Assembly (NCBI GenBank): GCA_964016885.1
Contig: OZ024741.1
Coordinates: 321,532,001-321,596,000 of the forward strand
Direction: 5' to 3'
Source of the DNA: Eledone cirrhosa
Taxonomy: Eukaryota
Length of the DNA stretch: 64,000 nt
How positions within the stretch are numbered: the first letter of the stretch is position 1; each line of letters opens with the position of its first letter. The notes under the pieces were generated by a model. The model was not told the origin of the DNA. It searched no databases and was given only the letters and a program-made list of their open reading frames with translations. The translations under genes were made by a program, and so were the position numbers. Positions 8,131 to 38,675 of the stretch are shown here, piece by piece.

Positions 8131-9122
8131 GGTACTACCATGCTATTAGCTGTCAGAAGTGAAAGTTTGTGGAGTTACTTAAATGAAAATATAGGTGGCC
8201 CTTAAAAGGGCCAAATTAGAAAACAAGTCATTTTCACCAACAGTGGAATTACTTCTGACAGCTAATACCATGAACTTAAATGAATTTTCACCAACAGTGG
8301 AGTTACCTATGACAGCTAATACCATGAACTATATTTTCAGTCATGGTTATCAATGTAGAAAACAAGTCATTTTCACCAAGAGTGGAGTTAACTTAAATAA
8401 AAATATAGGTGGCCCTTAAAAGGACCAAATTAGAAAACAAGTATATGGTTATCAAATTGTTTTCACCAACCCTATACATTTATGAAGAAATGTTTAGAAA
8501 ACAGAAAACAAATTTTTTTCACCAACCTTATTCAAAAGCAGATACAGTCCCCATGGAGACAATCCCCACCAATCAGCAACAACACCACGTGTAAATAAAT
8601 AAACTTTAATCTTCACTTTGTGATAATACACGCATTTTCAAGTTAAAAAATATGAATTCTACAATATACCCAAGTGTTAATGGAATTAACCATCGCTACC
8701 GCTACTACAGCAGATACCATCAATCTCCATGGGGATGTATCCATGCTTTTGAATAAGGTTGGTGAAAAAAATGTTTTCTAAACATTTCTTCATAAATGTA
8801 TTGAGTTGGTGAAAAAAAAATTGATAACCATGTTTTCTAATTTGGCCCTTTTAAGGACCACATATATTTTCGGCGATATTCAATTTTAGTGGACTAAATG
8901 CTGCTTACTTCAATGTATGAGGCTATCCCAACAAATTTACATTCCCTTTTTTTTTAGCCGTTAAAAGAAATATAGATTTATATCCATATCTTCATTTAAG
9001 TTAACTCCACTGTTAGTGAAAATGACTTGTTTTTTAATTTGGCCCTTTGAGGGGCCACCTATATTTTCATTTAAGTAACTCCACAAACTTTCACTTCTGA
9101 CAGCTAATAGTATGGTAGTGCC
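8131..9122 (+). mobile_element. Non-autonomous Merlin-like element (internal-deletion derivative) with long TIRs containing histone stem-loops
   Basis: GGTACTACCATGCTATTAGCTGTCAGAAGTGAAAG... at 8131 is inverted at ...CTGACAGCTAATAGTATGGTAGTGCC 9122 (~100-bp arms). ~8540-8725 matches the promoter/5' end of the transposase at ~40895-41110. No clear TSD. Confidence 0.8.
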
Positions 9123-10944: not shown

Positions 10945-11260
10945 GGCACTACAACGTTATTAGCTGTCAGTCCAGTGGAAAAACAGGCGAAGGTGACGTC
11001 ACTCGTCAACATCGTTTATTTCCGTATTACTACCACGCGTAAGTGGAGTTTTCACGCGTTTTTTTGAGAGAGGGAAGACAAAAGGGCCAAATTAGAAAAG
11101 TCATGATTATAAAGCATATCGATGTAAGTGGAGTTACTTAAATGAAAATATAGGTGGCCCTTAAAAGGGCCAAATTAGAAAACAAGTCATTCATAAATTT
11201 AAGTTTTATAATCAAATTTTTTTCACCAACAAATATGACAGCTAATAGCGTTGTAGTGCC
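10945..11260. mobile_element. Merlin-like MITE (~316 bp) carrying a histone stem-loop
   Basis: TIRs GGCACTACAACGTTATTAGCTGTCA / TGACAGCTAATAGCGTTGTAGTGCC. Interior matches 39784-40030. Stem-loop at 11156-11171 (minus). Confidence 0.82.
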
Positions 11261-11295
11261 CGCAATTGTATCTTTACGTCTATTGCGCATAGATA

Positions 11296-11400
11296 CGAGG
11301 GTTGACAAAGATACTCTCATGGAATGTGACCAAATGAGGTTTATTTTTCAACATAGTCTCCCTTGCGTTCCACACACTTCTTCCATCGGTGTTGCAGTAC
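11296..11400 (-). mobile_element. Mariner transposon 3' fragment
   Basis: Minus-strand translation LQHRWKKCVERKGDYVEK* is the typical mariner transposase C-terminus. TA-CGAGGG TIR-like end at 11294. Confidence 0.65.
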
Positions 11401-12202
11401 TGAGATCAATGTTGTCCTCGGTAGTGGCAGTTGTAGGACGTCCAGACATTGGGTCATCTTCAAGAATCCCCTATCCTTTCCTAAATTCGGCTGCCCACTT
11501 TTGCACAAAGGAAAATTGTGGTACAATATTGTAAGGTCTGCTTATAGCATTATCCATCTTTCAAAAATGAAGGTCCACATTTCGTCGACTTCAATACATT
11601 TTATTACATTTTATTGTATTGTAAACATTAACTTTTATGGAAATTTTATTACAAAATTTCAATTTAGTTCGATTTTTGTGGAATTTATTTAACAAACATG
11701 GAAAAATAAGAAAAAGAATTTTTAAAAAAATAAGATAGAGTGGAACTGATTTCCAGGTCATACTAATGAAACAAGGTTTTTTTCCATTACTGATATTATC
11801 TGTCTGCTGCAAGTCCTGGTAGAAGATGCTACACGAATTAAAGTATTTTACTGAAGGATGCAACATGCTGCAGGATCGAAGAAACGAGCCCATGACTTTA
11901 TAATGGTTAGTCCAGTACCGTAATCCCTAAGGCATGTGCCTTCACAGAGGAAAGGTAAATCATATTATAACAGATTAGATGGGTACTATGTTAGATATTA
12001 CTATGTGTCATATTATACCAAAGAGGAAGTGTGCCGTATAATAAACATTGATATCAGGTTGATTCAAAAACTACCCGGTCCCAAATATGAACCCATGGTC
12101 GTCAGTCAAACACTTTAACCATTGTATGTATGTATGTATGTATACACATATGGGTGTGTGCATACATGTATGTATGTATATATGTAAGTATGTATGCGTA
12201 CA

Positions 12203-14610
12203 TGAGAACAACTGGAAGGACTTCAGGAGCTCGGTCTATGAGGCTTCAGCAGAGGTCCTTGGCTTTGTCACAAGAAAACAAGGACTGGTTTGATGAGAAT
12301 GACCAGGAGGTCAAGGCTCTGTTAGACAGAAAACAAAAGGCACTTGATGCAGTTCTTAAAGGTGGTAGCTCTGTTGGTGACAATTATGAGTGTTACAGAC
12401 AGGTAAAGAAGGAAGTGCAGGTGAAACTCAGAGCTATGCAAAATACCTGGTGGAGCAACAAAGGAGATGAAGTTCAAGTGGCATCTGACGGCAACAATGT
12501 GAAACTGCTGCACTTTCTACTCACAGAGGTGTATGGCCCTTTCAGCTCTCCAGTGGCCCCTTTGAGATCGAAAGATGGCAAGCAATTACTGCGCGACCCA
12601 AAAGACACTCGACAGATAGAGAGATCACTTTGATGAGCTGTTAAACCAGCCATCCCAGGTTGATGATGATTTCATTTGTTCCATTCCTATTGAACCAGTG
12701 AAGCATATGAGATGGCTTGCAGAGGGGACTTCTGTTGTGCATAAGCTGAACTGTGGTAAGTCTCCTGGTATAGATGGTCTGAGTGGAGCGGTTTTGAAGT
12801 GTGGTGGTGAAAACTTCACGCAGCGCCTGACTGAACTCATGAAAATGGTGTGGGAAGATGAGAATGTCCCACAAGAAGGATGCGCTCATGGTGATTCTCC
12901 ATAAAGGAAAGGACGGCAAGGACAAATGTGGCAATTATCATGTCATATCCCTTCTTTCAGTAGTTGGTAAAGTCGTGTCGAATATTGATGGATAGATTGA
13001 TCCCAAGAGTTGCTCTGAATGTGTTGCCTGAGTCGCAGTGTGGGTTCAGAAACGAAAGAGGAACAGTAGATATGATCGTTTCTGCTTGGCAGCTGCAAGA
13101 AAAGTGTATCGAACAATGTATGGACCTTTACCAGGTCTTTGTTGACTTGACAAAGGCCTTTGACACTGTTAATCGAACTGCGTTGTGGGAAAAAAATCCA
13201 AGGTAGGGTAGAAGATTCTGCATCTTTTCCATGATGACATGAAGGCTTTGGTCAGTATTGGTGGTAGCATCTCTGAACCAATATCAGTTGAAAATGGAGT
13301 GAAGCAGAGGGACATTCCGGCTCCAACTCTGTTTTCCTTATATTTTACGATAGTGTTTCTCATGGCATTCAAATATTGTTCTCATGGGGTTTACATCAGG
13401 TATCGCACTTCAGGAAGGTTGTTCAACACCAGGCGCTTTGGTACAAGCACAAAGGTATTAACATCTATAATCCGAGAGTTTTTGTATGCAGACGACTGCA
13501 ATCTTTTTGCACACTCACAAAGTGACATGCAGCATATTATGAATTCTTTTTCTGCAGCTTGCAGCACTTTGGACGTCACAATAAGCTTGGAAAAGACTGT
13601 TGTGATGTATCAGCCAGTACCTGGAAACGAGTACACTGCACCAAGTGTGTACGTGTATGGAAAGAGGCTAAAAGTTGCTGACAAGTTTGTTTACCTTGGT
13701 AGTACGTTGAACACTTCATGCACACATGATAATAAAATATCCTTAAGAATCAAGAAAGCCAGTGATGCTTTTGGACGGCTGCATCAACGTTTATGGTCCA
13801 GATGAGGTATCGCTATAAAAACCAAGGTGAAAGTGTATCTGACTTGTGTTGTCTCCTCTTTACTTTATGTTTGTGAAACGTGGGTCACATACAGAAAGCA
13901 CCTCAAGGATCTGGAGAGATTTCACCAACAATCTCTTCATAAGTTACTTGGAAGTTCTAGAACGGAGCAGGTGCGTGACTATAGAGAACATAATCTTTCG
14001 GTATCGGTTGAAGTGGTGCAGTCACGTGGTCCGGATGTCTGATGATCGTATTCCAAAGCAACTTCTCTATGGAGAACTGTGTGAAGGAAGGCGGCCACCA
14101 CACAAACCAAAAATGCGGTACCAGGACTGTGTCAGGGACACCTTGGCTTGTGCTGGAATTTCATCTGATGAATGGGAGAAAATGGCTGACGAGCGTGTGA
14201 AGTGGAGACCACTTTGAAACTCGTCGGAGAGAACACCTAACACTGAAAAGGAAGGTGAGGATTGAGACTGTTCTGAACTGCCTGCTGTTGAACATCATCT
14301 GGTTTGCCAGCACTGTGGTCGAGTCTGCCTGAGCAAAGCTGGTTTGATTAGACATGAACAAAGTCATATCAGTAGACCTCATGTAGATTATGATCTGAAA
14401 AGGTGTAAGAAATGTACAAGCATGGGAGGTCTTAAAAGATACATGTGAACATACAGCCAGAACAAAGCAATGGAAGGTTTCGAGGGAGCCTAAAGTTGCC
14501 ATGTGTGTGCCAGAGGGTGCAAGTATTTGGCTGGTTTAAAGAGTCACATTTGTGCTTCACATTTTTGAACATTTTATCGGGCGATAGCAATACTTGAACA
14601 CGAGTTTGCA
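12203..14610 (+). mobile_element. Decayed RTE (BovB-like) LINE with C-terminal C2H2-finger relics
   Basis: Fragments LPESQCGFR, FVDLTKAFD, FLYADD, FVYLGS, RIPKQLLYGEL. CxxC...H motifs at ~14305-14560. Many frameshifts. Confidence 0.88.
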
Positions 14611-15487
14611 GCCATCATGTAGTATGTATGTATGTATGTCGGGTCACTCTTGAGTGCTATTGGTAACATGTAACCCAGTACAACCTGTCGCATGGTCGGG
14701 TCGTCGGCGACCCCACCAAGCAACCCCACCAAGTTTACTTGGTGAGGAGGGTGATTTTGGACACCCTGCAGGACAAAAAACAAAACCTGACAAAGGGCGG
14801 AAGATCTCATAAGAGTCAACGGCCATCCAAAAGTGTGTAAATATGTATATACACATGTACATATGTATGTATATGTATATGTGTATATATATGGGTACAT
14901 GTGTATGTACATGCGTGGGGACATAGAAATAATAGGGCAAGACACCCGATCGTGCGGTTAAACCACTGGGAGTGAAGGACCCCTAGCCTTTGTCAGGGCA
15001 TTCTTCTAGGAGAAGGCAACTCAGGAAACTGGGATAACTCTGATATAAAACCTGCGGCTCAGTAGTTACCGATGATGTTGATATTTTCTTCTTTTCGGGT
15101 TATAGCTACTGTCGCTCAGAGAGTGGGATTGGCTCAGTGCACAGTCTTTCCTCATTTAAAAAAATATCTTCATGCACAGGCATTGCACGATAGAATAATT
15201 AATAATTATTAATAATGGTATAACGAGGAGGCAGCCATCATGTATGCATGCATGCGTGTATGTATGTGTGTGTGTGTGCATGCGTGTGTGTATATATATA
15301 TATGCATGTGGGTGTGTATATATATATCTCCATATACATATTTATTCAGCTGATATAGGCTGGATTGGTTGGAATATTCTGACGCGAATTCTTTCTGCTC
15401 TGTTAAATCGAAACAAATCTTGACTTTTTATTTGAGGTTTTCTATATAAGAGACCGGGAGACCATGTTGATACTATGAAGGCCATTT

Positions 15488-16090
15488 GTCCTAAGCCACC
15501 TGGACTATTGCTCCCAGCTGTGGTCACCCCATAGTATCAAACTAACCACGGAACTTGAGACAATCCAACGAAGCTACACCAAGAGGATTGCACGATGAAG
15601 GAGATGAGCTACGGGGAGAGGCTAAAAGAACTGAAACTCTACTCTTTGGAACGAAGACGGGAGAGATACGCAATGATATACATATGGAAAATCCTGGAGG
15701 GACTATCGCCAAACTTTGGTATTGAGAGCGGGACCAACCCCCGAACAGGACGTCACTGTGTGGTGACAAAGGTCCTGTCTTCCACATCTAGAACAAGAAG
15801 CAGATATTGTAATAGACTGGGGTTCAAAGGCCCTCAACTCTTCAACAAACTGACGAGGGATTTGAGAGATCTACATGGTGTGGCCGTGGATATTTTCAAG
15901 AAACTTCTCGACACCCTGTTATCCAGGATCCCGGATGAGCCCACATCACGGTACGAAGGTAATCTAAGGGCAGCAGCAACGAACTCCCTCTTACATCAAT
16001 GGCCAGCCAACACAGGCTGGAGATAGAATGTGTAGCAACAAGGGCAGTGCCCAATCATGGTCTCAGCCGGATGGCTGGAACAGCTAAAAG
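15488..16090 (+). mobile_element. CR1/L2-group LINE 3' fragment
   Basis: ORF 15595-16026 MSYGERLKELKLYSLERRRERYAMIYIWKIL. Minus-strand copies at ~19076-19410 and ~44455-44790. Confidence 0.75.
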
Positions 16091-16366
16091 AGTATATATA
16101 TATATATATTTAATATAGAAATGGCTTCAACAGGACTAGAACTGTTTCATTCGGAGAAAATCATCAGAAAAGCCGACTGTCAATGTAATATGGTGGTATT
16201 TATACATTTTCTGGTGGTAGGGGAGGGTAGTAAATTGATGCTAAGTAGACAAACACATACACACTGACAGGCACTCCTAATTTTCAAGATTCATTTATTC
16301 CAAACAAACAAAGGGTTTTCATTGATTGGCAATATTAAAATGCTCTGCTAAAAGATATAAATATCT

Positions 16367-16395
16367 GTGTATGTGTGTGTATATATATATATATA

Positions 16396-16430
<35 letters not shown>

Positions 16431-16505
16431 GTGTGTATGTGTGTGTTTGTGTATATATATATATGTGTGTGTTTGTGTATATATATATATATATATGTGT
16501 GTGTT

Positions 16506-16554
<49 letters not shown>

Positions 16555-16555
16555 T

Positions 16556-16615
<60 letters not shown>

Positions 16616-16627
16616 ATGTGTGTGTGT
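16367..16627. repeat. Compound (TA)n/(TG)n microsatellite
   Basis: Directly visible. Confidence 0.95.
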
Positions 16628-17579
16628 GCAAATTTCAATAATATTAAGACACCCTATAGTGAAAAGTTTGGCCAATAAATGGAACAAGATTTTACGAACT
16701 CCTCCCATAACCATATATATTCTGAAACTACATTCCCCAGGGTAGTTGTATAAGTATATTTCATTTTAATCAAAGGGTTCATCGGGGGCACAAAACCGCC
16801 GCTGAAACTTTACCTTCGATTTATATGCAAACCATAGGTAAACGACAAGATATGATACCTATTCACAAAATTTTAGAAAATTGCAATAAAATTAAAATAC
16901 CCTAATGGGGGTTAAACCCCCTATTAGGGTTCACCGGTGGCACAAACCCCTGCTGAAAATGTTTTCCCTTCGATTTATATGCAATTTAAACCATAGGTAA
17001 ACGACAAGATATGATGTCTATTCACATCATTTCAGCAAATTTCTATAAAATTACAATACCCTAATGGGGGTTAAACCCCCTATTAGGGTTCACCAGGGGG
17101 CACAAAATCCTCGCTGAAAATTTTTTCGGTTCGATTTATATGCAATTTAAACCATAGATAAATGAAGAGATATGATGCCTATTCACAACATTTCAATACT
17201 ATAAGACACCTTAATGGTGGTTAAACCCCCTATTAGGGTTCCCCGGGGGTACAAACCCCCGCTGAAAACTTTTCCCTTTCGATTTATATGAAACTTAAAC
17301 CATAGGTAAATGACAAGATATGATGCCTATTCACAAAAGTTTTCAATTGATATTTTGAAAAAAATTATTTACAAGAAACAAAATAAGAATAAGATTTAAT
17401 AATGCAATTTTGATTTGATATATTACAAAAAATAATGTTTTCCAATTTTTCATGCATTATATTTTACATTGAGCAATATTGAGTTTTTCTCCATAAATTA
17501 TATCACTGATTTAAAATCAATCATCATTTTCTTACAAAAAAAATGTGTGAAACGCAGCAAGGCGCGGGTAATTCGGCTA

Positions 17580-17580
<1 letters not shown>
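16627..17580 (+). mobile_element. Helitron-like element copy with ~4 tandem ~160-bp units
   Basis: Same unit as 1632-2299 and the same ...GGTAATTCGGCTAG|T end. Confidence 0.65.
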
Positions 17581-17624
<44 letters not shown>

Positions 17625-17654
17625 AGTGTGTGTATATATATATATGTGTGTGTG

Positions 17655-18645
17655 TGTGTGTGCTCATTATGTAGGAGAGGTGTAGGTAGAAACTCCATCC
17701 TCTGCCCCATATGCAAACTATGGGTACACAAGAGATGTAGTGGGATCTCAGGAAGTTTAGTTAAGAATGTAGGCTTTACATGTAGCAGTTGCACCAGGAC
17801 AGTAAGCAGCAAACAATCACTGAAAACAAGTGACATCAAAGTCTGGGAGGACTTGGTAAAAACAATACCGAATTAGCAGCAGAGAGGGTGTTCTGAAAGA
17901 ACGGGATGGAAGAAGTTGAGGGAGCTACTGCCACAGCTGGATACAAAAGGCTTTTCCCTCAGAATAAAAGGTAACTGTATGATGTGTGCATATGAACGGC
18001 AGTGTTGCATGGTAGTGAGAGCTGGACACTGTGTGTAGAAGACTTGCGTAGATTAGAAAGGAATGAAGCTTGTATGCTCCGATGGATGTGTAATAGTAAT
18101 ATACGCGAACAGCAAAGCATAAACAAACTGAAAGAGAAATTAGGCATAAGAGGAATCAAATGTTGTGTGCAGGAGAGGAGATTATGTTGGTATGGACATG
18201 TGATTCGTATGAAAGATGACAGCTACATAAAGTCCCAGAAAGACTTGAGATGAAGTGATAAAAGCCGACCTTGCCCAATTGCATCTCTGAAAGGCAATAA
18301 CACAGGACCAAGAGCTCTGGCGTTATGAGGTAATACAGAAACCCCAACTTCCCACGGGACCAGGCCAAGGCTGAAACATACATACAGTATGCACCACTCC
18401 ATCCCACCCGCCAATAATATTTCATAAGAACAGGCCGAAACACTGTAAAGTGGTCGTGATGGTGACACGGTAAAAAACACCCAGTCCACACTGTAAAGTA
18501 GTCGTGGAGGAATCACAACAAAAAACACCCAGTACTCACTGTAAATGAGCTTGGCATTAGGAAGGGCATCCAGCTGTAGAAACCAAGCCCAAATCAGTTC
18601 TTTATGAGCAAGACATGGTCACCTGACCTAACATTGCCAACAATA
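17655..18645 (+). mobile_element. RTE LINE 3' fragment (family of 2303-5328)
   Basis: CSLCRRGVGRNSILCPICK and MLHGSESWTL...RRLCWYGHV. Confidence 0.85.
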
Positions 18646-18647
18646 GA

Positions 18648-19008
18648 AGGCACATTGCTCAGTAGTTAGAGCATTGGGCTTGCAATTGAAAGGTTGTGAG
18701 TTTAATTCTCAGACCGGGTGATGTGTTGTTTCCTTGAGCAAGACACTTTATTTCACATTGCTCCAGTTTACTCAGCTGTAGAAATGAGATGATAGGACTG
18801 GGGTCCCTATCATTCCACTGCAAAAAAAAAAAAAAAAACACCCAGCACTCACTGTAAATGAGGTTGGTGTTAGGAAGGGCATCCAGCTGTAGAAATCAAG
18901 ACAGAATCAGTTCCCGTATAAGCAAGACAAGGTCAGCCGACTGGACACTGCCATCAACAGGACAACCCATGCTAGCGTAGAAGAACTGACATAAAATGAT
19001 GATGATGA
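18648..19008 (+). mobile_element. tRNA-derived SINE with RTE-type tail
   Basis: Degenerate A/B boxes, core TCCTTGAGCAAGACACTTTA, RTE 3' UTR and (TGA)n. Confidence 0.8.
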
Positions 19009-19414
19009 AATATAACAGAGTTTTATAGCTTGCTTGAAGCATTGATGAATAGGAAACACAAATTTAAATTTTGAAAACCAAGTTGAGGGCCTTTGAACCC
19101 CAGGCTGTTGCAATAGCTGCTCCTGATTTTAGATGTGGAAGACGGGACCTTTGGTACCACACAGTGACGTCCTGTTCGAGAATTGGTCCAGCTCTCAATG
19201 CGAAAGTTTGGTCTTAGTCCCCCCAGGATTTTCCATATGTATATCATTGCATATCTCTCCCGTCTTCATTCCGAGGAGTAGAGTTTCAGTTCTTTTAGAC
19301 TCTCCCAGTAGTTTATCTCCTTCATCGTGGCAACCTTCTTGGTGTAGCTTCATTGGATTGCTTCAAGCTCCATGGTTAGTTTGATACTATGGGGTGACCA
19401 CAGCTGGGAGCATT

Positions 19415-19775
19415 CATCATTTCATTTTACGTCCACTTTTTCCCTGCTTGCAAGGGTGGGACAGGAACTGATTCTGGCTTGATTTCTACAGCTGGATGCC
19501 CTTCCTAACACCAACCTCATTTACAGTGAGTGCTGGGTGCTTTTTTCCCGTGGCACCTCCACATCCACTTTACAGTGTGGGCTGGGTGCTTTTTTGCCGT
19601 GGCACCTCCACGACCACTTTGCAGTGGAATGATAGGGACCCCAGTCCTATCATCTCATTTCTACAGCTGAGTAAACTGGCGCAATGTGAAATAAAGTGTC
19701 TTGCTCAAGGAAACAACACATCACCCGGTGTGAGAATTGAACTCACAACCTTTCGATTGGAAGGCCAATGCTCTC
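19415..19775 (-). mobile_element. tRNA-derived SINE with RTE-type tail
   Basis: Reverse complement of the SINE at 23962. Confidence 0.8.
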
Positions 19776-19785
19776 AATATGTATG

Positions 19786-19829
<44 letters not shown>

Positions 19830-19877
19830 CATATATATATATATAATTTTTTGCTTCTCTAACTATATATATATATA

Positions 19878-20410
19878 TCATCATCATCATCATCATCAAC
19901 GTTTAACGTCCGTGTTCCACGCTTGCATGGGTTTGGACGGGGGTAGTCCCACTTGAGGCAAGAGTGATTGTCTTGCTCGCATAGGACTGTCTGGCAGGTT
20001 TTCTACAGTTGGATGCCCTTCCTAACACCAACCACATTTACAGTGTGGGTCTGGGAGGTTTTTACCGTGTTGCCTACACGGCCACATTACAGCGTGGACT
20101 GTGTGTTTTTTTGTCGTGACACCTACACGATCTCATTTGTTTCGGCCCGGATGGCGCGGCACCAACATAACTTTACATAGGACGAGGTGGTGTGGATGGG
20201 GTGGGGGTGGTGGTGGTGGGACGGGGTGTATTTTGTTAGAGATGCCTACTGGCAAGGCGGGTCTTCTCTGTTACTGAGTACCGCCAAAGGTCTCGGTCCA
20301 GTGACATTGTCTTGGAGAGGTGTAAGTGTGTGAGGTCGGAGTTTATCAGCTCGTCCCAGGTTTTTCTAGGTCTGCCTATTCCGTGGCTACCGTCTATCTT
20401 TATTGCCATA
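19878..20410 (-). mobile_element. RTE LINE 3' end
   Basis: (ATC)n tail, TGGATGCCCTTCCTAACACC motif and GRPRKTWDELI coding relic. Confidence 0.75.
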
Positions 20411-21639
20411 TATATATAAATATAAATTAGCGAGAATCGTATTTCAGCTCAGGAATTAACGAAAATCGACGTCCGATATGTGTGGCAAGCGGTCGATGAT
20501 TCATGTGAATCAGAGCTACAACATACGTTAAGGGCCAAACACACTGAGATGATGGTTAAACATATCATCCGCACAGCCAAAACAAACGACCAAGTAATTC
20601 GGGTCAAACAATAAAAATATATGTGTTGATACTTTCCCGGACCCTGGACTGATGGTAAAATCCAGTATTGGTTTCTGCGACTCCAAAATCAGGTACTGTC
20701 CGCCTACATAAAGAATGTTGGGCTTCTGGTAGGATGATGAACAAGGAAGTCGTGTTATCAACGGGTTTTGCTCCAAAATGCTATAGATAAGTGTGACTAT
20801 TACTGACCCCACGTGGGGTTCAGCAAGGGAGGCAACACCTCTATTAGGCGAATGATTCAGTTGTGTATAATATTGCGAGAATGCAAAATATCACAAATCG
20901 AATTAAGCTCTCGACAGAATGGTTAAATATAACAGAGCTATTCAACAGTCAATAGAAGCAACTAAAAAAATCTATAAAATTAACTGCTCAAAGAAATAAC
21001 ACCCCCACCTGGTCTGAGAATTGAACTCACAACCTTTCGATTGCAAGGCCAATGCTCTAACCACTAAGCCATGTGCCTCCATTACCATATTAACAACAAA
21101 TATGATTTTCACTGCAATAAAAAATGACAAGCTTTGTGAATGGTATTTCCACCCACTTTCCGCCCTCTTTTTTCTACAAAGCTAGTCAATTTCAACAGGT
21201 TTCAAAGCCTTCATTGATAATATGTGCAAAAAATAGTTAATTGCGAAGACTTTTAATGTAAGATTGGGTGGTAAGCACACACAAAAAAAAAGACAAAAAA
21301 AGCAGGAAAAACATTTTTCACACTGAGTTCAATAGCATGGTGCGATGTAGTATGGTGTAGTTTGTTATGGTGTGGTTTGGTTTGGTGTAGTTTGGTATGG
21401 TTTAGTTTGGTGTAGTTATAATATGGAAACCTATCATAAATTTACCAAGGTATGGTATAATCTGGTTTGGTGTAGTGTAGGTTAGTGTGGTGTGGTGTCT
21501 TATTGTGTTGCATCGTATAGCGTGATTCTCTTTAAATTAAAATCATTAAAATGTAATGCCTATCTTCTATATCTTAAAGAGTGACCTTAAATGTGATTGC
21601 AAATGACTTTTTTCTCTGGGTTAATGTTAGATTTAGGGT

Positions 21640-24600
21640 TAGTGTTAGGGTAAGTATTACTGTTAATGGTAAGTTTATTGTTAGTGACTGTGTTACTATT
21701 AGCATTACTGTCACTGTTAGTGTTACTGTAACTGTTACTCTTACAGTTACTGTTTGCGTTACTGTCTGCATCAGCGTTAGTATTTGCATAAGCGTCTATG
21801 TAAGCTTTTGTGTTAGTGTCTATGTAGACTGGTGTTAGCATCTGCGTTAGTGTTTGCGTAAGTGTCAGCATCTATGTCAGCATTTGCGTCAGCGTCTGAA
21901 TTGGTGATAGTGATTGTGTCAGCATTTCCCTTAGCGTCTGAGTCAACATTAGTGTTAGCATTAGTGTTTGTTTCAGTGCCTACGTCTACGTCAGCTTCTG
22001 AGTCAGCATTATCATTAGCGTCCGTGTCAGCACTTGTGTCAGTGTCAGCATTTCCCTCAGTGTCAGCGTTTGCATCAGCGTGCACGTCAGCATTTGCATT
22101 AGTGTTTGAGTCAGTGTTAGCATCAGCGTTTACATTTGTGTAGAGGTTAGCATTTGCGTCAGCATCTACATCAGCATTCACATTAGCATTAGCGTTTGCG
22201 ACGGCGTTTCCTTTAACGTCTTTGTCAGCATTTCCGTTAGCGTCTATGTCAGTGTTTCCATTAGCTTCTACGTCAGTGTTTACGTTAGCGTCTGTGTCAG
22301 TGTTTCCGTTAGCTTCTACGTCAGCATTTCCGTTAGCTTCTATGTCAGCATTTCCGTTAGCATCTATGTCAGTGTTTCCATTAGCATCTACGTCAGCGTT
22401 TCCGTTAGCATCTATGTCAGTGTTTCCATTAGCTTCTACGTCAGCGTTTCTGACCACGTCTGTGTCAGCGTCAGTATTTACATCTACATCAGCGTCAGCG
22501 TTTCAGTTAACGTCAGTGTTTACGTTAGTGTCTGTGTCAGCGTTTACGTTAGCTTCTTCGTCAGCGTTTTCGTAACGTCTACGTCAGCGTTTTCTGTTAG
22601 CATTGGCGTTTCCATCAACCTTTCCTGTGGCGTCCGCATCATTGCAGCGTCTGCATATCCCATGTAAGCGTTAACTTCAGCATTTGCGTCAGCGTTAACT
22701 TCAGCATTTGCGTCAGCCCTAGCGTCCGCATCAGCATTTGCGTTAGCGTCAGCATACATGTCAGCGCCGGCAAAATTGCCCCAACATTTGCGTCAGCGTT
22801 AGCTTTGGCTTTAGCAATCCGCATCAGCAATTGCGTTTTGGAGATCAGCTTCGGCGGTAAGGGTAAACGCTAACTTCTACGCCTGCTTCTACGTTAACAA
22901 CTACGTCAGCGTTTACGTTAGCTTCTACGTCAGCATCTACGTTAGCTTCTACATCAGCATCTACGTTAGCTTCTACGTCAGCGCTTACATTAGTGTCTGT
23001 GTCAGCGTTTGTGTTAGCTTCTACATCAGCGTCAGCGTTTACATCTACGTCAGCGTCAGCGTTTACATTTGCGTCTGTGTCAGCGTTTACGTTAGCTTCT
23101 ACGTCATCGTTTACATTAGCGTCTGTGTCATCGTTTACGTTAGCGTCTGCGTCAACGTGTGTTAGCATCTGTGTCAGCGTTTATGTTAGCATCTGCGTCA
23201 GTGTTTACGTTAGCATCTGTGTTAACGTGTGTTAGCGTCTGCATCAGCATTTTCATTAGTGTTTGCATCAGTGATTCCTTTAGCTTCTACGTCAATGTTT
23301 ACGTCTGCGTTAAGGTTCACATTAGCATCGCTGTCATCGTTTGTGTCAGCATTTGCGTTTGCTTTAACATCTGCATCAACATTTGCGTCTGTGTTTGCAT
23401 TAGTGTCTGCATTTGCTTTAGTGTTTGCATCAGCGTGAGCATTTGTGTCAGTGTCCACGTCAGCGTTAGAGTCTGAGTAGCATTTACATCAGCGTGTGCG
23501 TCAGAGTCTTTGTCAGCATTCGCCTTTGCACCTGCATCAGTATTCACGTTAGTGTTTGTGTCAGCGTAAGCGATTGTGTCAACATTTGTGCTAGCGTTTG
23601 TGCCAGCATAGCCATCTTCGTGAGTGTCAGCGTTGGCGTTAGTGTTAGTGTTTCCATTAGTGTTCGTGTTAGTGTTTGATTTTGTATTAGTGTTAGCATT
23701 TTTGTTAGTGTTAGTGTTCAGGTTAATGTTGACTTAGTTTTCTGGTTAGTGTTAGTTTTCAGGTTAGGGCTCGTGTTACTTTTAGTGTTAGTGCTCAGGT
23801 TAGTGGTTTATGGTAGTGTTAGTTTTAGTGGTAGTGTTAGTGTTCAGGTTAATGTTCGTATTAATGTCAGTTTTAGTGTTAGTGTTCAGGTTAATGTTAG
23901 TGTTTACGGTAGTGTTAGTTTTAGTGTTAGTGTTTTATTTTGTGTTAATGTTTGTGTTAATGGAGGCACATGGCTTAGTGGTTAGAGCATTGGCCTTGCA
24001 ATCGAAAGATTGTGAGTTCAGTCCTCAGACCAGGTGATGTGTTGTTTCCTTGAGCAAGACACTTTATTTCACATTGCTCCAGTTTACTCAGCTGTAGAAA
24101 TGAGATGATAGGGACTGGGGTCCCTATCATTCCACTGAAAAGTGGTTGTGTAGGTGCCACGTCAAAAAAGCACCCATCACTCACTGTAAATGAGGTTGGT
24201 GTTAGGAAGGGCATCCAGCTGTAGAAATCAAACCAGAATCAGTTCCCGTCCCACCCTTGCAAGCAGGGAAAAGCGGACGTAAAATGATGATGATGATGAT
24301 GATGATGATGATGTGTTAGTGTTTCCATTAGTGTTAGTGCTAGTCTTTGTTTTTCTGTTAATGTTAGTGTTTGTTTTAGTGTTGAGGTTAATGTTAGCTT
24401 AGTTTTCTGGTTAGTATCAGTTTTTGTGTTAGTTTTAGTGTTAGTGTTAGTTTTTATGGTAGTGTTAGTGTTACTGTTAGTGCTCAGATCAGTGTTACTG
24501 TTTATGGTAGTGTTAGTTTTAGTGCTAGTGTTTAGGTTAATGTTAGTTTTAGTGTAAGTGTATAGGTTAGTTTTAGTGTTCAAGTTATGTTTGTGTTAAT

Positions 24601-26240
24601 GTTAGTTTTAGTGTTAAGATTAGTGTTAGAGATTGTGTTAGTGGTTGTTTTTGTGTTAATATTTGTGTTAGTATCTCTGTTAGCATTAGTGATTGATGTT
24701 TACATTAGTGTTAGTGATTGTGTTAGCGTTAGTCTTTGTTTTTGTGTTAATGTTAGCATTAGTATTTCTGTTAGTGTTAGCATGAGTGTTTGTGTTAGTG
24801 TTCAGGTTAATGTTAGCCTAATTTTCAGGTTAGTGTTAGTGTTCAAGTTAATGTTAGTTTTAGTGTTAGAGATTGTGTTAGTGTTTGTTTTTGTGTTAAT
24901 ATTTGTGTTAGTATCTCTGTTAGTGTTAGTTTTAGTGTAAGTGTTCAGGTTAGTGTTAGTTTTAGTGTTAAGGTTAGTGTTAGTATTTGTTTTTGTGTTA
25001 GTATCTCTGTTAGCATTAGTGTTTGATGTTTCCATTAGTGTTAGTGATTGTGTTAGCATTAGTCTTTGTTTTTGTGTTAAGGTTAGCATTAATGTTAGCA
25101 TTAGTATTTCTGTTAGTGTTAGCATTAGTATTTATGCTAGTGTTCATGTTAATGTTAGCTTAGTTTTCAGGTTAGAGTTAGTGTTCAAGTTAATGTTAGT
25201 TTTAGTGTTAGTGTTGAGGTTAGTGTTAGAGATTGTGTTAGTGTTTGTTTTTGTGTTAATATTTGTGTTAGTATCTCTGTTAGCATTAGTGTTTGTTTTA
25301 GTGTTGAAGTTAATGTTAGCTTAGTTTTCTGGTTAGTATCAGTTTTCAGATTAGTGTTACTTTTAGTGTTAGTGCTCAGGTCAGTGTTAGTGTTTATGGT
25401 AGTGTTAGTTTTAGTGCTAGTGTTCAGGCTAATGTTTGTGCTAATTTTAGTTTTAGTGTTAGTGTTCAGGTTAGTGTTAGTGTTTTTTTAGTGTTTGTTT
25501 TTATGGTAGTGTTAGCGTTTGTGTTACTGTTTATGGTAGTGTTAGTTTTAGTGCTAGTGTTTAGGTTAATGTTAGTTTTAGTGTAAGTGTTCAGGTTAGT
25601 GTTAGTATTAATGTTAGTTTTAGTGTTAAGGTTAGTGTTAGAGATTGTGTTACTGTTTGTTTTTGTGTTAATATTTGTGTTAGTATCTCTGTTAGCATTA
25701 GTGTTTGATGTTACCATTAGTGTTAGTGATTGTGTTAGCGTTAGTCTTTGTTTTTGTGTTAAGGTTAGCGTTAATGTTAGCATTAGTATTTCTGTTAGTG
25801 TTAGCATTAGTGTTTATGTTAGTGTTCAGGTTAATGTTAGCTTAGTTTTCAGGTTAGAGTTAGTGTTCAAGTTAATGTTAGTTTTAGTGTTAGTGCTCAG
25901 ATTAGTGTTACTTTTAGTATTAGTGCTCAGGTCAGTGTTAGTGTTTATGGTAGTGTTAGTTTTAGTGCTAGTGTTCAGGCTAATGTTTGTGCTTATGTTA
26001 GTTTTAGTGTAAGTGCTCAGTTTAGTGTTAGTGTTTGTATTAGTGTTTACGGTAGTGTTAGTTTTAGTGCTGGTGTTCAGGTTAGTGTTAGTGTCAGTTT
26101 TAGTGTTAGTGTTCAGGTTAGTGTTTCTGTTAGTTTTCTATTTAATGTTAGTTTCCATATTTTGTGTTTGTGTTAGTTTTCATGTTAGCGCTAAGTTCAC
26201 TGTTAGAGCATGTGTGAGTGCAAGTGTTAGGGTAAGTATT
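21640..26240. repeat. Complex degenerate hexamer satellite (GCGTCA/GCGTTA grading into GTTAGT)
   Basis: 6-bp periodicity throughout, giving only low-complexity ORFs. Paralogous to ~50190-54500. Confidence 0.85.
23962..24312 (+). mobile_element. tRNA-derived SINE with RTE-type tail, near full length
   Basis: GGAGGCACATGGCTTAGTGGTTAGAGC (A box), GAGTTCAGTCC (B box), core, RTE 3' UTR and (TGA)n. Absent from the paralogous site near 53400. Confidence 0.85.
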
Positions 26241-26589
26241 ATTTTTAAAGTTAGGTTTTCTAATTTCCAGGAAAAAAGTTGATCCTCTCTAACTTGAGTG
26301 GTGTGATATAGTGTGGTAAAGTATAGTGTTTCATAGTCTTGTGTGGTGTTGTCTATTGTTGTATAGTGTAGTATGGTATATTGTTTCATAGCATGGTCTG
26401 ATGTGAGGTCGTACAGTGTTTCGTAGTGTGGTGTTGGATAAGGTGGTATGGTATAATGTTTGTCAGTGTGGTGTGGTATGGTATAGGTTGATGTAGTGTG
26501 GCTTAGTTTGATTATAATAATACAAATAATAATAACAATAATAATAGTAATAATAATTGTTCTTCTTGTTCATTTTCTATGTCTTTTTC

Positions 26590-26690
26590 TGTGCCTTTGA
26601 TTGCTTCTGTGCTTTTGACTGCTTCTGTGCCTTTGACTTCTTCTGTGCCTTTGACTGCTTCTGTGCCTTTGACTTCTTCTGTGCCTTTAT
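26590..26690. repeat. 18-bp minisatellite (TTCTTCTGTGCCTTTGAC)n
   Basis: About 5 units. Expanded version at 54863-55105. Confidence 0.85.
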
Positions 26691-27594
26691 CTTCTCCTCT
26701 GCCATCTAATCTAAATACCAAAAACAAAGAATGTAAAACATATGTGTTGCCTATCTCTCAGACTTTACAAAGTGCTGAGGAGATAAAGTTAATTTAAAGA
26801 ACAGTGTGCTCATGCACTGTGATCCTATAATGTAGCTTATAAGCTATTTCATAACTAAAAAACAATATCAAACATCAACAAAAGTATATACAAATATCTT
26901 TGAATGTTTAAGTTAAACCTAAATAGATCGTATCTACAGGTCATTAGGTTAAGGCTGAACTAAGATCCTATCTATAAATCATTAGGTTTAGACTGAACTG
27001 AGATCATACTTTCTTCTTCTTTTCGTCATCTTCGTTTCCCGTGTCTTCTTTGTCTTTGTTGTCATTTTCATTTTAGTCGTCTGCTTCGTCGTCTTTTTCT
27101 TCTTTTCCATCTAAATATAAAAAAAAATTGTAAACAATTATATAGCTGATCTCTCAGACTTTCACGAAACACCGAGGAGATAGTTAATATAACGAGTGGG
27201 GAGCTCATATATATATATATATATATGGTATAGCATGGTGTTATGTGGTCTGGTGTGGTACAACATGATGTGATGTGGTGTGGTATGATATGGTGAGGCA
27301 GGGAGGGGAGGGACACAACGTTAGATTAATGTTAACAATACACATGTAGCATCCACATGTGATGAGAAGGGGGAAACAGTGTTTAACTAATTTTAACATT
27401 ACATGTAGCATCCATCTACAGGTGATTAAGTTAAGACTGAGGTGTAATCATATGAAAAGGTCAATTTAAAACTACACTGAGATTCTGCTTAAAATGATGG
27501 TCAATGAAGTGTTTACTTACTCAAACCCTTTGAAATAACTTTCTTTCTCTTACTGTAACTGGACATACCTACGAAATAGAAAACAGTCGAATAG

Positions 27595-27932
27595 ACAGTA
27601 GTGTGGTGTGGTGTAGTGTGATGTGGTGTAGTGTAGTGTGGTTTAGTGTAGTGGACAGTGGTGTGGTGTAGTGTAGTGGAGTGTGGTTTAGTGTAGTGGA
27701 CAGTGGTGTGGTGTGGTGGAGTGGAGTGTGGTTCAATGTAGGGTGGGGGATATGGTGTAGTGGAGTGTGGTGGGATGTAGTGTGGTAGCATGTGGTGTGA
27801 TGGCATGTGATGTGATGTGGCGTGGCGTGGTGAAATGTGATGTGATATGATGAAATGTGGTGTGGTGTGGTGAAATGAGGTGAGAGGAGGTAATGGCGTG
27901 CGGAGTGATTTGATGTGGTGTGATGTGATGTG
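27595..27932. repeat. (GTGGT/GTGAT)n pentamer satellite
   Basis: Directly visible. Also at ~28900-29470, ~57200-57570 and ~58660-58990. Confidence 0.9.
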
Positions 27933-28257
27933 AAATTTTTTCATCCTATTTTTCATGTGCTATCAACTAATCCAATCTCCAAGATTCTTGAAACTGACTT
28001 TTTCCCAGGAAAACAGCGGGGTGAGGTGGTGCCCCCTTCACCCGGATAACCCCTGCTTACTCGGAATTTTCTCTTTGATTCTATTTTCATGCGTTATCAG
28101 TGAATATGACTTCCAAACCAGTCAAAGACAACTAGCTTTGGAGAAAGAGGAGAGGGAGAGGGGAAGAGTTTTGCAGATCTACACCCCCACTCACATGTTG
28201 TGGGACTTAATCATTTTCGGTATATTTCCTAGATGCTTCCAATCAACTTATTTCCCT

Positions 28258-28525
28258 GGGTTAGGTTTAGGGTTGGGGTAATGTTTAGGGTTTAGTTTTA
28301 GGGTTGGGGTAATGTTTAGGGTCTAGTTTTAGGGTTGGGGTAAAGTTTAGGGTTTAGTTTTAGGTTTGGGGTAAAGTTTAGGGTTTAGTTTTAGGTTTGG
28401 GGTAATGTTTAGGGTTTAGTTTTATGGTTGGGGTATAGTTTAGGGTTTAGTTTAAGGGTTGGGGTAATGTTTATATTTAGATTTAGCTTGGTTTGGTTTA
28501 GATTTAGAGTTTAGGGTTGGGGCTA
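28258..28525 (+). repeat. ~31-bp TTAGGG-rich minisatellite
   Basis: Unit TTAGGGTTTAGTTTTAGGGTTGGGGTAATGT. Paralog at ~57972-58300. Confidence 0.85.
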
Positions 28526-29737
28526 GATTTAATTTTATGTTTAATTTAGTTTTAGTTTCCACATCCCAGGAAAAAAATTGATTCAGAGCAACTGAAAGGT
28601 CAGATTAGTTGATAGCACTCAAAAGGAGACCGAAGAAAAATCATTAGGGTATATATCTACAAAACGAAAATGGTTTTTCCACCTGCTTTACCCCTCCTTT
28701 TTTCTAGAACAACTAATCATTTCCAACTGGTTTGGAGGTCACATTCGTTGATAACATACGAAAAATCTTAGAGAAAACTCTGGGGGTTAAATGAGAGAAG
28801 TGCATCCACCTAAGTTTTCCATGAAGAGAGAGTCAATAACAAAGATCTTGGAGATCAGATTAGTTGATAACACATGAAAAAAAGATGAGGAAAAAATGTT
28901 GGGTGTTATGTGGTGTGGAGTAGTGTGGTGTGTTTTTATGCGGAGTGATGTAGTGAGGAGTGGTGTGTTGTGTTGTGGTGTTATGTGGTGTGGAGTAGTG
29001 TGGTGTGTTGTAGTGAGGAGTGGTGTGTTGTGTTGTGGTGTTATGTGGTGTGGAGTAGTGTGGTGTATTCTTATGTGGAGTGATGTAGTGAGGAGTGGTG
29101 TGTTGTGTTGTGGTGTTATGTGGTGTGGGTAGTGTGGTGTGTTTTTATGTGGTGTAGTGTGGTGTGTTCTTATGTGGTGTGATGTAGTGAGGTGTGGTGT
29201 GTTGTGTTGTGGTGTGGAGTAGTGTGGTGTGTTGTAGTGAGGAGTGGTGTGTTGTGGTGTGTTTTTATGTGGAGTAGTGTGGTGTGATGTAGTGAGGAGT
29301 GGTGTGTTGTGGTGTGTTTTTATGTAGAGTGGAGTAGTGAGGAGTGGTGTGTTGTGTTGTGGTGTTATGTAGTGTGGTGTAGTGTTGTATGTTTTTGTGT
29401 GGTGTGGTGTGATGTGGTGCGGTGCACTGCGATGTGGTGCGGTGCGGTGCAGTGTGGTGTTGTGCAGTGAGGTTCTTCATCTTTATCTTTCTCTTCTTCA
29501 TCTTTGTATTCATCTTCTTTGTTTTGTCTTCCATCTAAACAAAAAAATATATATATAAAACATATATGTAGCCAATCTCTCAGACTTTTACAAAGCTCCA
29601 AGGAGATAACTTTAATATAAGTGGTGTGTTCCTGAACAGAGATACTACAACATAGCTTAAAAGCTATATATATACACATATATATATATATATATAAATA
29701 AATATACACGGGTGTGTATGATTGTGTATAGAAGATT

Positions 29738-30185
29738 ATATTAAGTGTTAATTGAACAAGTAATTTCATGCTTTCGCAATCTTCAGGTTCATAGCTAAAT
29801 AAACAATAATAATTCTTAGGGGTATAAAAACCCTAGAAAATCTTATTTACATCATTTCTAAAAATAGCAAAACAATTGATGCTTTGGATAGAGCCAAATA
29901 GAAGTCGTTAGACATGCTCAACCAACCATGACGCCTAAACCAATCAGCTTCAGTAATCCAGTAAAACTACACACCAATTGGTCGAAATACAGTTTTCAAA
30001 ATTTAGCATTCTGTAGCCACTTTTCACTGTATATAAGGCACAAAATTTACCCATCTCATTACAGTTGAAAATTGCAAACTTGGCTGTCACCACAGAATAT
30101 GAACCTAAAGATTGCGAAAGCATGAAAGTACTTGTTCAATTAACATTTAACACTTAATATTCTACCATACTATTCAGATTACATT
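29738..30185 (+). mobile_element. Penelope-like pseudo-LTR remnant (deleted version of 59340-60415)
   Basis: Short inverted arm 29738-29792 fused to the long arm. Matches 60026-60415. Confidence 0.7.
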
Positions 30186-30804
<619 letters not shown>

Positions 30805-31189
30805 ACTTGACGATGAGCATTCTAGTTGTTCAATAAACTGATTGAATAATACAAACGATGTTTTAATATACAGATTCATTATTTGTGTATATATAATATA
30901 TACAAAGCATATAAATAAATTTACAGTAGAATAACATAGCAAATATGTTTTAAATATATACATAAATAACATTACCAATGCTTAAATAACATTATAAATT
31001 GCTCGCGATTCTTTCAGAAGGATATATTCCTTTAATGTTGCAATATTAAAGAAAATATACGTATATATATACATACATATATTTATTCAACTAAGGAAAG
31101 TTGGTTGATTGAAAATCTGCCGACTCTTTCATAAGAGATGACAAACACTCAACAGTTTATGTTTATCCGGAGTTTTATTATAATAATTG

Positions 31190-31290
31190 TTTCTACTTTG
31201 GCACAAGGCCAGAAATTACTCAGTGTATTACTGGTACTTTATTTTATCGACCCCATAAGGATAAAAGGCAAAGTTAACCTCGCCGGGTTA
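31190..31290. mobile_element. Fragment of a second SINE-like family (also ~34920-35150 and ~38045-38150)
   Basis: Recurrent GGCACAAGGCC..., AAGGATGAAAGGCAAAGTTAACCTC and ATTTGAACTCAGA motifs. Resembles an abundant octopus repeat (from memory, unverified). Confidence 0.55.
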
Positions 31291-31558
31291 TAATAATAAA
31301 CAAGAAAGACGGTATCATTTGCCCATCCCTATTTATTTTACTATGCGTATTTCATTTGTATAACGTCTGCCCTACGTGTTCTCATATCAACGGATATCAA
31401 CGAATATCTCATATCAACGGATATTTACATTTTGCATGGATTTTTGTCGGAAGAAAACACGTAGGGCAGATATTATAGAAATGACATATGTCTTCGAAAT
31501 AAGTATAATAAAATTAATAGGGATGAACAAGTGAACCGTCTTTCTTCTTTATTATTAT
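31291..31558. mobile_element. Imperfect foldback / MITE
   Basis: Inverted arms TAATAATAAACAAGAAAGACGG...TCTGCCCTACGTGTT vs AACACGTAGGGCAGA...CCGTCTTTCTTCTTTATTATTA. Confidence 0.65.
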
Positions 31559-31588
31559 ATATACACACACACATATATATATATATAT

Positions 31589-32395
31589 ATGTTGAAAAGG
31601 TAACACACTAGAGAGAGATATACAGTGCGCTATCAATAAAACAGGGAAAAAACCACCAGTGTATGGAATCTATAACCTATGAAAGACAGACTATAGACAC
31701 GATAATTAAAAATATAAATTAAAGCGTAAATAAATACCTCTGCAACTATATAACACGTACAAATCCAAAGAGATCTGTTTCGCCAGTAAGTTGTTGGCAG
31801 AAATGGAATAACCCCAGTTGCTCAGCGTGTATAAGGCTATACATTTCAGACAACACTAAGAGAATTTTAAAAGTGACTGTCCAGCTACACGTGGGAGAGA
31901 GAAGTCACAGCGTGTTTAAGGGCAGTGAACCAGTGGCCTCTGAGGGACGAGCTACTAGAAAGGGCAACCCAAAACAACTCAGAGAAGTGTGCTCAACCAA
32001 ACAGAGGGATAGGAAAGACTGCTATAAGGAGCGAAATATCACGATAAATTAACGGAGCCATAGACCCTTGCCATTCCCTGTAAATAATATGCTCAAAGGA
32101 GAAGAAATCCTGAGCTCTATAAAATACAATATGTTGAAAAGGTAACACACTAGAGAGAGATATACAGTGCGCTATCAATAAAACAGGGAAAAAACCACCA
32201 GTGTATGGAATCTATAACCTATATAAAGGAAGACTATAGACACGATAATTAAAAATATAAATTAAAGCGTAAATAAATACCTCTATAACTATATAACACA
32301 CGTACAAATCCAAAGAGATCTGTTTCGCCTTTAAGTTGTTGACAGAATTGGAATAACCCCGGTTCCTCAGCTTCAGACAACACTGAGAGAATTTT
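31589..32395. repeat. Direct repeat pair of ~270 bp, ~540 bp apart
   Basis: ATGTTGAAAAGGTAACACACTAGAGAGAG... begins at ~31589 and ~32131. Confidence 0.8.
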
Positions 32396-32678
32396 GGCGC
32401 CAAACTTTTCCTTTTGAAAGAATAATGTGATTTGTCACGTGATATTACCTCTAAATATGTGAATACATACACAGCATTCTCCTCACGAAGGGCGAGAGTG
32501 GCGATCGCAAACATATATACATATACACGCAAACACATACACATCACACATATATATATACACGCAGAAACACACACATACAATAACGACGAGTACTACG
32601 AATCTGGAGGAGCGAATGATGGAGAAGATGAAGCTCTCTGCCGCAGAATAAATGGTATTTAATTTTAATAATAATACT

Positions 32679-32737
<59 letters not shown>

Positions 32738-32824
32738 GGAGGTGAGTTTTATCGTAGTACAATAAAGCAATGCAGATATCGGATAAGAAGCACTCTACAA
32801 TTTGTAGGACTGGAGTATAAATAA

Positions 32825-33182
32825 TATATAAGATCAAAAGATGGTTAAAAGAGTTCCATGTATTTTATTATGCGCATTTCAAAAACAAATATCATCATGC
32901 AATAACATTTGCGTTTTCGTCAGATAAAATAGGGAGACATGATATGAAGGTTAAAATACACTTGTAAATAGTGCAGTTTTAATGATATGTTGATTTAATG
33001 TAATGTTGATATATATATAATGATATGTTAATTTAAAACTGCACTATTCACAAGTGTATTTTAATCTTCATATCATGTCTCCCTATTTTATCTGACGAAA
33101 ACGCAAATGTTATTGCATGATGATATTTGTTTTTGAAATGCGCATAATAAAATACATGGAACTCTTTTAACCATCTTTTGAT

Positions 33183-33190
<8 letters not shown>
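32825..33190. mobile_element. Foldback MITE with ~155-bp near-perfect TIRs in a TA tract
   Basis: TATAAGATCAAAAGATGG...GTGCAGTTTTAA vs TTAAAACTGCAC...CCATCTTTTGATCTTATA. Confidence 0.8.
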
Positions 33191-33223
<33 letters not shown>

Positions 33224-33298
33224 GAATTGATTATCATTATCGTTTTTATGGCAAAAGATAGACAGAGAGGGAAAGAGATAGACAGAGGGAAAGATTTT

Positions 33299-33348
<50 letters not shown>

Positions 33349-33802: not shown

Positions 33803-33848
33803 TGTATATATATATATATATGTGTGTGTGTGTATGTGTAACTAGTAA

Positions 33849-38645: not shown

Positions 38646-38675
38646 GGTGACATACAAAACTAACAGATATTTAGC

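Follow-up and report, generated by a model that had tools for sequence, protein, structure and literature searches.

Among the cellular mRNAs of animals, only those of histones are regarded as ending in the histone stem-loop (PMC4604434, PMC9745837). What, then, are histone-type stem-loops doing at the ends of a DNA transposon? This question is raised by a 64,000-nt stretch of DNA from Eledone cirrhosa (hereafter the window), which lies on a chromosome-sized contig (C2) of the 3.0-Gb genome and includes a histone cluster. A both-strand scan of the window returned 13 histone-type hairpins, eight of them transposon-borne and five belonging to real histone genes (two H2A, one H2B, one H4 and one H3), which confirmed that the transposon copies outnumber the genuine ones. 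The eight hairpins and two accompanying half-copies were all found at the positions and on the strands given in the original prediction, and the four in the element at 8131..9122 read outward. As stem-loops they are not uniform: all are present, but only four of the eight are perfect (8197, 11156, 33881 and 39998), and the Rfam Histone3 cut-off was passed in the window only by the H4 hairpin and by three transposon copies, 8197, 11156 and 39998.

The element at 8131..9122 is a non-autonomous Merlin element, an internal-deletion derivative with a left-type terminal repeat at both ends. Inverted ends of about 100 bp holding an H4-like block had been predicted; the inverted arms are indeed there, ~121 bp long with 7 mismatches, but the hairpins are subterminal, 67 nt in, and the terminal repeat common to hairpin-free relatives comprises the first ~36 bp only. 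This terminal repeat proper lies at 8131..8166 (+) on the left, where it matches the hairpin-free sister subfamily at 83% over 36 bp, and at 9087..9122 (−) on the right. The outer left H4-derived block (8169..8212, −) has a perfect hairpin at 8197-8212 with a TTT 5' flank, and is followed by two 54-bp units (8232..8339) with two H4-derived pieces around a terminal-repeat core and by the inner left block (8381..8426, −), whose hairpin at 8411-8426 has a U.G wobble. By comparison with intact ORFs, 8652..8752 (+) is a transposase remnant in which the first codons are fused to the last codons and the stop. Behind it, a truncated H4 block at 8844..8871 (+) takes the position of the sense copy that follows the transposase stop, with a C.A mismatch in its hairpin (8844-8859), and the outer right block (9041..9084, +) has a hairpin at 9041-9056 with a TTGA loop and a U.G closing pair. 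No target-site duplication was found for this copy (4 of 8 positions mismatched). Contigs from public runs spanned both of its junctions without any difference and at single-copy depth; they come from one study, possibly of the assembly's own sample, and are not independent.

The remaining transposon hairpins of the window belong to two further members. Those at 11156-11171 (−) and 33881-33896 (+) are the two ends of one giant 23-kb non-autonomous element (10945..34087), which also has a half-copy near 11080 and for which no clean target-site duplication was found. A coding-type member on the minus strand (39784..41400, right terminal repeat at 39784, half-copy near 39916) has a sense hairpin at 39998-40013 and an antisense hairpin at 41179-41194 flanking a broken transposase (~40116-40967); the latter hairpin has a G.A mismatch at the diagnostic second pair. 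The window's own H4 gene, with a real stem-loop, lies at 38630..38987 (−) and is a paralogue of the donor described below. We also observed that a long segment, containing tandem repeats of 12/18/24 bp and of 31 bp, is duplicated at 15584-30150 and 41686-59714; it is probably cargo shared by two giant elements.

Genome-wide, the window element matched 411 places (from 40 scored candidates), and a 36-nt block of hairpin plus flank had 502 exact matches on many chromosomes as compared to 0 for the reversed control, and is therefore neither a chance match nor a local one. Rather than being missing from the family consensus, the block proved to be family-wide in one Merlin lineage. Perfect hairpins with the TTT flank of the family numbered 589, and the terminal repeat of the hairpin lineage had 501 exact matches, that of the sister subfamily 93. 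Coding members have a single ORF, which is intact at 300-302 aa in L098 and L100. The 302-aa ORF of L098 matched PF12762 (DDE_Tnp_IS1595) above cut-off (68.8 bits, E 6.7e-19), and the transposase blocks EIDE, ISDL and HIEC are present. The terminal inverted repeats begin with GG, and among 47 end pairs within loci, 13 had a perfect 8-bp target-site duplication and 21 had at most one mismatch; none was perfect at 6, 7, 9 or 10 bp, and many of the misses are internal end units of larger elements. With an IS1595-type transposase, GG inverted repeats and 8-bp target duplications, the family is Merlin.

Giant Merlin members of 22-48 kb were seen as well, with a common cargo of other repeats, and most transposase-coding copies extend >6 kb into shared cargo without a left end there. 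All seven giant pairs tested matched at 8 bp, one inside a TA run (on contig C1: L141/L142, L148/L149, L150/L152, L153/L155, L162/L164, L166/L167 and L168/L169).

The source of the block could be identified. Graded versions of one 3' flank are found in twelve hairpin-bearing H4 genes. The donor among the H4 genes, L065 on contig C7, agrees with the block at 63 of 64 sites, and the family block retains the donor's 48 downstream nucleotides. The H4 gene of the window was considered as donor and rejected (37 of 39 nt, against 63 of 64 at L065). One element, L080, has the last H4 codons, the stop, the UTR, the hairpin and 200 nt beyond it between Merlin ends, and the matches of seventeen family members together span −63 to +968 of the donor, counted from the hairpin; the majority sequence of these members deviates from L065 at 25 of 451 sites of the extension. 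Because L080 holds H4 codons and the members cover this much of the donor, the direction from H4 to transposon and a transfer of ~1 kb from the identifiable L065 locus are established at the level of sequence. Today, no family ends are found within 30 kb on either side of L065; one short family end is located 1 kb past a different H4 gene, L062.

The same likeness could be produced by a local rearrangement, by an assembly artefact, or by an H4 gene that took its end from the transposon. The window copy, with no target-site duplication, would fit the first two, but 502 exact copies across many chromosomes speak against them, as do the junction-spanning contigs (from one study, possibly of the assembly's own sample). 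A transfer from transposon to gene is contradicted by the twelve H4 genes with graded versions of one flank and by the element carrying H4 codons. Artefact and reverse transfer are refuted by the copy number, the donor match and the codons in L080, and we regard this set of explanations as almost certainly wrong.

The sister subfamily shows what the ends look like in relatives of the hairpin lineage. It has ~74-88% transposase identity and a slightly different terminal repeat, 15 of whose 93 matches are in tandem and in the same orientation, 11-18 kb apart, on a small contig (C1421:13729-200345). The same native TTTGTTTTCTAATTTG/ATAACCATGAC repeat is mirrored at both of its ends without the H4 block, and in the hairpin lineage the block is located at the joint of this repeat. 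It starts with the first G of the stem, directly after native CTAATTT, and in its commonest form runs for 63 nt before returning to native AACCATG; the trimmed block begins exactly at the first stem base and ends just past the GATATG common to most histone 3' flanks. Only 1 of 30 sampled sister ends had a hairpin. In a tree of 48 transposase rows, rooted at midpoint, 36 hairpin-bearing rows and one truncated row formed one 100/100 clade, and 11 sister rows, all hairpin-free, fell outside it. As read from this tree, the hairpin was gained once, in a single lineage. No hairpins were found in 13 loci of distant Merlin families (L204-L216, 31-41% identity), and in three descendants (L239, L243 and L252) the H4 flank is kept while the hairpin is lost. 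The mirror layout predates the capture and thereby explains the outward orientation of the hairpins. In a set of 23 short elements, made up of the window copy and 22 others that have a target duplication, 30 of 34 hairpins read outward, and three of the four exceptions are back-to-back central pairs. The proposal that the histone sequence has become a structural subterminal repeat is thus borne out: it is H4-derived, was inserted in an older repeat, is fixed in one Merlin lineage, and has been mirrored and multiplied by the element.

From this we propose that a Merlin ancestor captured a piece of one H4 locus, likely once and by template switching during repair, as modelled for Pack-TIRs. The captured ~1 kb would have been trimmed in one lineage to a 46-64-nt block starting at the hairpin, which would then have fused into the older subterminal repeat of the family before being duplicated and mirrored to both arms, if the trimming took place in that order. 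The hairpin itself would have no job of its own. That it is a passenger of subterminal repeat turnover, captured likely once from H4, is the reading we favour, and we consider it probable without being certain of it. It agrees with the dispensability of the hairpin and with its decay as an RNA signal, both described below. In young copies, private changes were about as frequent in the hairpin (4 of 368) as just upstream (31 of 2983, p=0.79; private rates on the 5' side are inflated by misalignment and were excluded), which suggests that there is no selection on the hairpin after insertion of individual copies. On the other hand, the trimmed block has its limits exactly at the stem and just past GATATG, the sense copy persists through every sampled step of the active lineage, the trimmed lineage has more exact terminal repeats than the sister (501 vs. 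93), though it is also younger, and the same hairpin is found behind genes of other mobile elements.

Turnover of the repeat is also visible in the 54-bp units at 8232-8339, which have no hairpin. The unit core had 38,523 exact matches in the genome, nearly all on contigs after C12, and the unit forms tandem arrays in L017 (C895) and also occurs at L028 (C28). Its summed contig depth was ~two million, as compared to ~eight for single-copy flank. Tandem Repeats Finder found the array in L017 and missed the two window units. The most amplified H4-derived piece is hence a hairpin-free satellite, as expected from repeat turnover.

Could the block have a function in the DNA of the ends? We sampled 27 distinct lineage ends (from 30 loci, with three dropped for a shared flank), of which 19 had an outward hairpin within 650 nt, four an inward one (internal or in short elements) and four none. 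The four hairpin-free ends are one end type, and three of them belong to giants that are paired with their far end by a matching 8-bp duplication, one inside a TA run; since these duplications match, the hairpin is not needed at both ends. An obligatory transposase-binding site, as suggested in the original prediction, is contradicted by these ends together with the sister subfamily, which lacks the block, and the dispensability of the hairpin is in this respect established. A weaker version, in which the block assists the transposase as an accessory site, acts as a spacer, or is a palindrome that promotes fold-back repair and thereby its own spread, would agree with the outward orientation in the short elements and the back-to-back pairs among the exceptions, with a block as unchanged as the native end sequence, and with 12 nt of H4 origin beside the right-type terminal repeat, which persist even in hairpin-free ends. 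In addition, L020 folds back at the hairpin and at least 112 loci join at its first base. However, the sister elements have perfect duplications without the block, the hairpin-free giant ends have matching ones, and the mirror symmetry is older than the capture. Junctions recur at block positions 12, 18-20, 30-36, 45-48 and 62-63, and these types are spread across the whole block and not concentrated in the hairpin, for which reason the hairpin as a breakpoint hotspot was rejected. We find a role of this kind rather improbable. Still less probable, and in our view very unlikely, is that the hairpins act as two-sided terminators shielding histone genes or as a source of SLBP/U7 decoy RNAs. Both ideas, which were part of the original prediction, could draw on the outward orientation at both ends, on the 589 TTT-flanked perfect hairpins in the genome and on the three family members in the histone cluster of the window. 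Yet elsewhere none of 168 family loci adjoined core-histone coding sequence (~1.5-kb flanks, overlapping loci included), leaving histone shielding unsupported, and a family end was seen at just 2 of 19 histone loci. The decoy idea is weakened because the conserved A-rich 5' flank has been replaced by TTT, in 156 of 178 distinct sites. Half of the window copies are damaged, and the private changes point to no selection after insertion.

One function was missing from the original list and is the most testable one. A sense hairpin follows the stop in 33 of the 35 coding copies that reach it, at a median of 137 nt after the stop and perfect in 24, and it might serve as a histone-type 3' end for the transposase message: cut through SLBP and U7, without poly(A), tying the supply of transposase to S phase or oogenesis, while the other hairpins would be by-products of mirroring. 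As in the 3' end of replication-dependent histone mRNA (Rfam RF00032), the family has a 16-nt stem-loop with G2-C15, U6-A11 and U at loop positions 1 and 3, with ACCUA after the stem and H4 downstream sequence to +64. The stem-loop is strictly canonical at 127 of 178 distinct sites (a set that includes 30 loci chosen by exact match). The sense orientation and steady position, the presence of the sense hairpin behind intact 300-302-aa ORFs and the absence of backbone substitutions in the block all favour such a role, as does the finding that the whole H4 downstream region (64 nt) is kept only in the sense copy type, compared with 46 nt in the inner 5' type. There are also parallels in other elements, with two Tc1-type metagenome ORFs ending 28 and 36 nt before a perfect hairpin and three Helitron families in this genome with a sense hairpin 270-580 nt after the helicase stop. 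But in contrast to histone messages, the family has a TTT flank, a distance of 137 nt from a non-histone stop, an AATAAA upstream and many copies that are antisense or have no gene. An A at −2 or −3 is present in every one of the 23 histone hairpins examined here, TTT in none, and according to PMC10388802 SLBP requires two adenines 5' of the stem for wild-type affinity. In 22 of the 23 histone genes the hairpin follows the stop by 24-40 nt, and a range of 25-60 nt is called critical for regulation in the accessible part of bioRxiv 10.64898/2026.10.14.759114, which 137 nt exceeds. The AATAAA lies within 100 nt upstream of the sense hairpin (44-88 nt) in 26 of 33 coding copies, and the sister has none at this position. 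The downstream region has lost one T, and L180, the oldest of the coding copies, retains more of the H4 sequence at the antisense end, its 5' one. On balance a histone-type end is unlikely, although it is the main rival of the passenger reading.

The pattern of change along the active lineage bears on both the passenger and the histone-end interpretation. The transposase ORF is under purifying selection (pN 0.031, pS 0.137), and between the oldest (L180 and L186) and the youngest subfamily the block has no shared substitution, whereas 26 of 191 synonymous sites have changed (P ~2e-4 with the synonymous sites as the standard of rate). Drift would be expected of a neutral passenger, so an unchanged block counts against this reading. 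However, the native 137 nt before the sense block are equally unchanged over the same path, hence the block is not singled out, and judged from the sequences constraint on the whole end or homogenisation among copies would explain its state equally well. The synonymous sites are moreover an unfair clock for this lineage, because the H4 flank differs just 5.5% from the captured copy. Selection specific to the block was for these reasons set aside. A mosaic origin of the young ORF was also considered and not seen, as the changes accrue as a nested ladder. The synonymous change of 13.7% along the active lineage, in subfamilies that differ little in age (terminal branches of 1-2%), indicates a faster clock than the host flank suggests.

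Processing of a histone-type end would involve U7, and a search for U7 snRNA gave no match above the Rfam cut-off (65 candidates scored, four matches, the best at 29.7 of 34 bits; control genomes also match). The best match, L221 (C3:314686447-314686503), has a stretch resembling a U7-type Sm site, and its 5' part misfits the histone flanks seen. We noted no obvious purine-rich downstream element in the histone 3' flanks (L061-L075 and the window); they have in common AAGT at ~16-20 nt and GAT(A/G)TG at ~36-45 nt beyond the stem, perhaps a sign that the 5' end of U7 is unusual.

The same hairpin turned up in other mobile elements. Perfect hairpins that have no T at −2 number another 449 in the genome (control 3), and a query with the core histones found no such coding sequence at the first 30 of these loci. 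Ten of the 30 lie 270-580 nt behind Helitron helicase ends and have A-rich flanks, and eleven more belong to one of the families concerned. Three Helitron families (Pif1 helicase; on contig C1, L258, L260, L267, L272, L275, L278, L279, L282 and L283), with a mutual identity of 53-65%, have a sense hairpin, and one of them has twin hairpins 76 nt apart. The hairpin was rejected as a family-wide trait, being carried by only 3 of 30 helicase-selected copies of one family. Six other loci (L263, L265, L266, L268, L277 and L284) have single perfect histone-type hairpins in unrelated-looking sequence, with neither a histone nor a helicase ORF close by.

When metagenomes were scanned with the upstream motif that is shared, 25 loci were returned: one histone cluster, ten GC-rich loci (at least 0.48) and 14 that were translated. 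Two Tc1-type transposase ORFs (PF13358, PF01498; L291 and L304) stop 36 and 28 nt short of a perfect stem-loop that has GAACGCAAAAAC-like sequence in front of it; this is canonical histone spacing behind a transposase gene. Three RING-finger ORFs among the 14 translated loci end 36, 60 and 94 nt before the hairpin, and taken with other ORFs of no known type the distance is 28-94 nt (L293, L296, L299, L294, L307, L289 and L297). By eye, a convergent ORF in L296 resembles a Polinton-type capsid protein, with no Pfam match. The Tc1-type and RING-finger cases keep the flank and the spacing and so have the look of a used signal, which marks the Merlin copy as the weaker candidate. They also raise the prior that mobile elements use the histone 3'-end pathway. 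That the Merlin lineage swapped in a histone 3' end which couples transposition to DNA replication, as one example, with a known donor gene, of a wider strategy found too in the Helitrons of this genome and in Tc1-type transposase and RING-finger genes of mobile elements from other invertebrates, is a tentative idea to which we give a low chance.

Compared with what is described for the Merlin superfamily (IS1595/IS1016-related) in the available text of PMC8101967, the family has the expected GG, inverted repeats, 8-bp duplications and single DDE_Tnp_IS1595 transposase, as well as internal tandem repeats of the kind proposed to be a source of proto-satellites. It differs in that the repeat unit holds a captured host RNA-processing signal fixed in a transposase-coding lineage, in that members reach 22-48 kb, and in that the derived 54-bp unit actually became a satellite. 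It also resembles the multicopy Pack-TIRs of animals (Ssk-FB4, with gap-filling and FoSTeST models), which in the portion of PMC8277862 available are likewise host fragments with an identifiable parent in a terminal-repeat transposon, amplified by transposition and with short microhomology at the joints. The elements here hold host sequence with such a parent (L065) and are multicopy, with different flanks and with duplications. Unlike the few-copy internal cargo of non-autonomous elements described there, in text that does not mention Merlin, the cargo has been trimmed to ~60 nt, sits in both subterminal arrays, is kept by coding elements and is present at >500 sites. Full-text searches of the openly accessible literature listed no description of a transposon-borne histone stem-loop.

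Taken together, our results show that the element is a Merlin Pack-TIR whose coding lineage has taken a host RNA-end signal into its subterminal array, and the route of this signal can be traced from the donor gene through intermediate forms to an end module that is now fixed. The family has intact transposase genes and, as a built-in control, a sister without the hairpin, so borrowing of the histone pathway by mobile DNA is directly testable; if the transposase message does end at the hairpin, it would be made and destroyed like a histone message. Even as passengers, the hairpins that transposons carry at >500 sites will swell the number of Histone3 annotations for this genome. The captured DNA also contributed to a satellite with at least 38,000 units, which makes this a traceable case of a path from host gene to transposon end to satellite.
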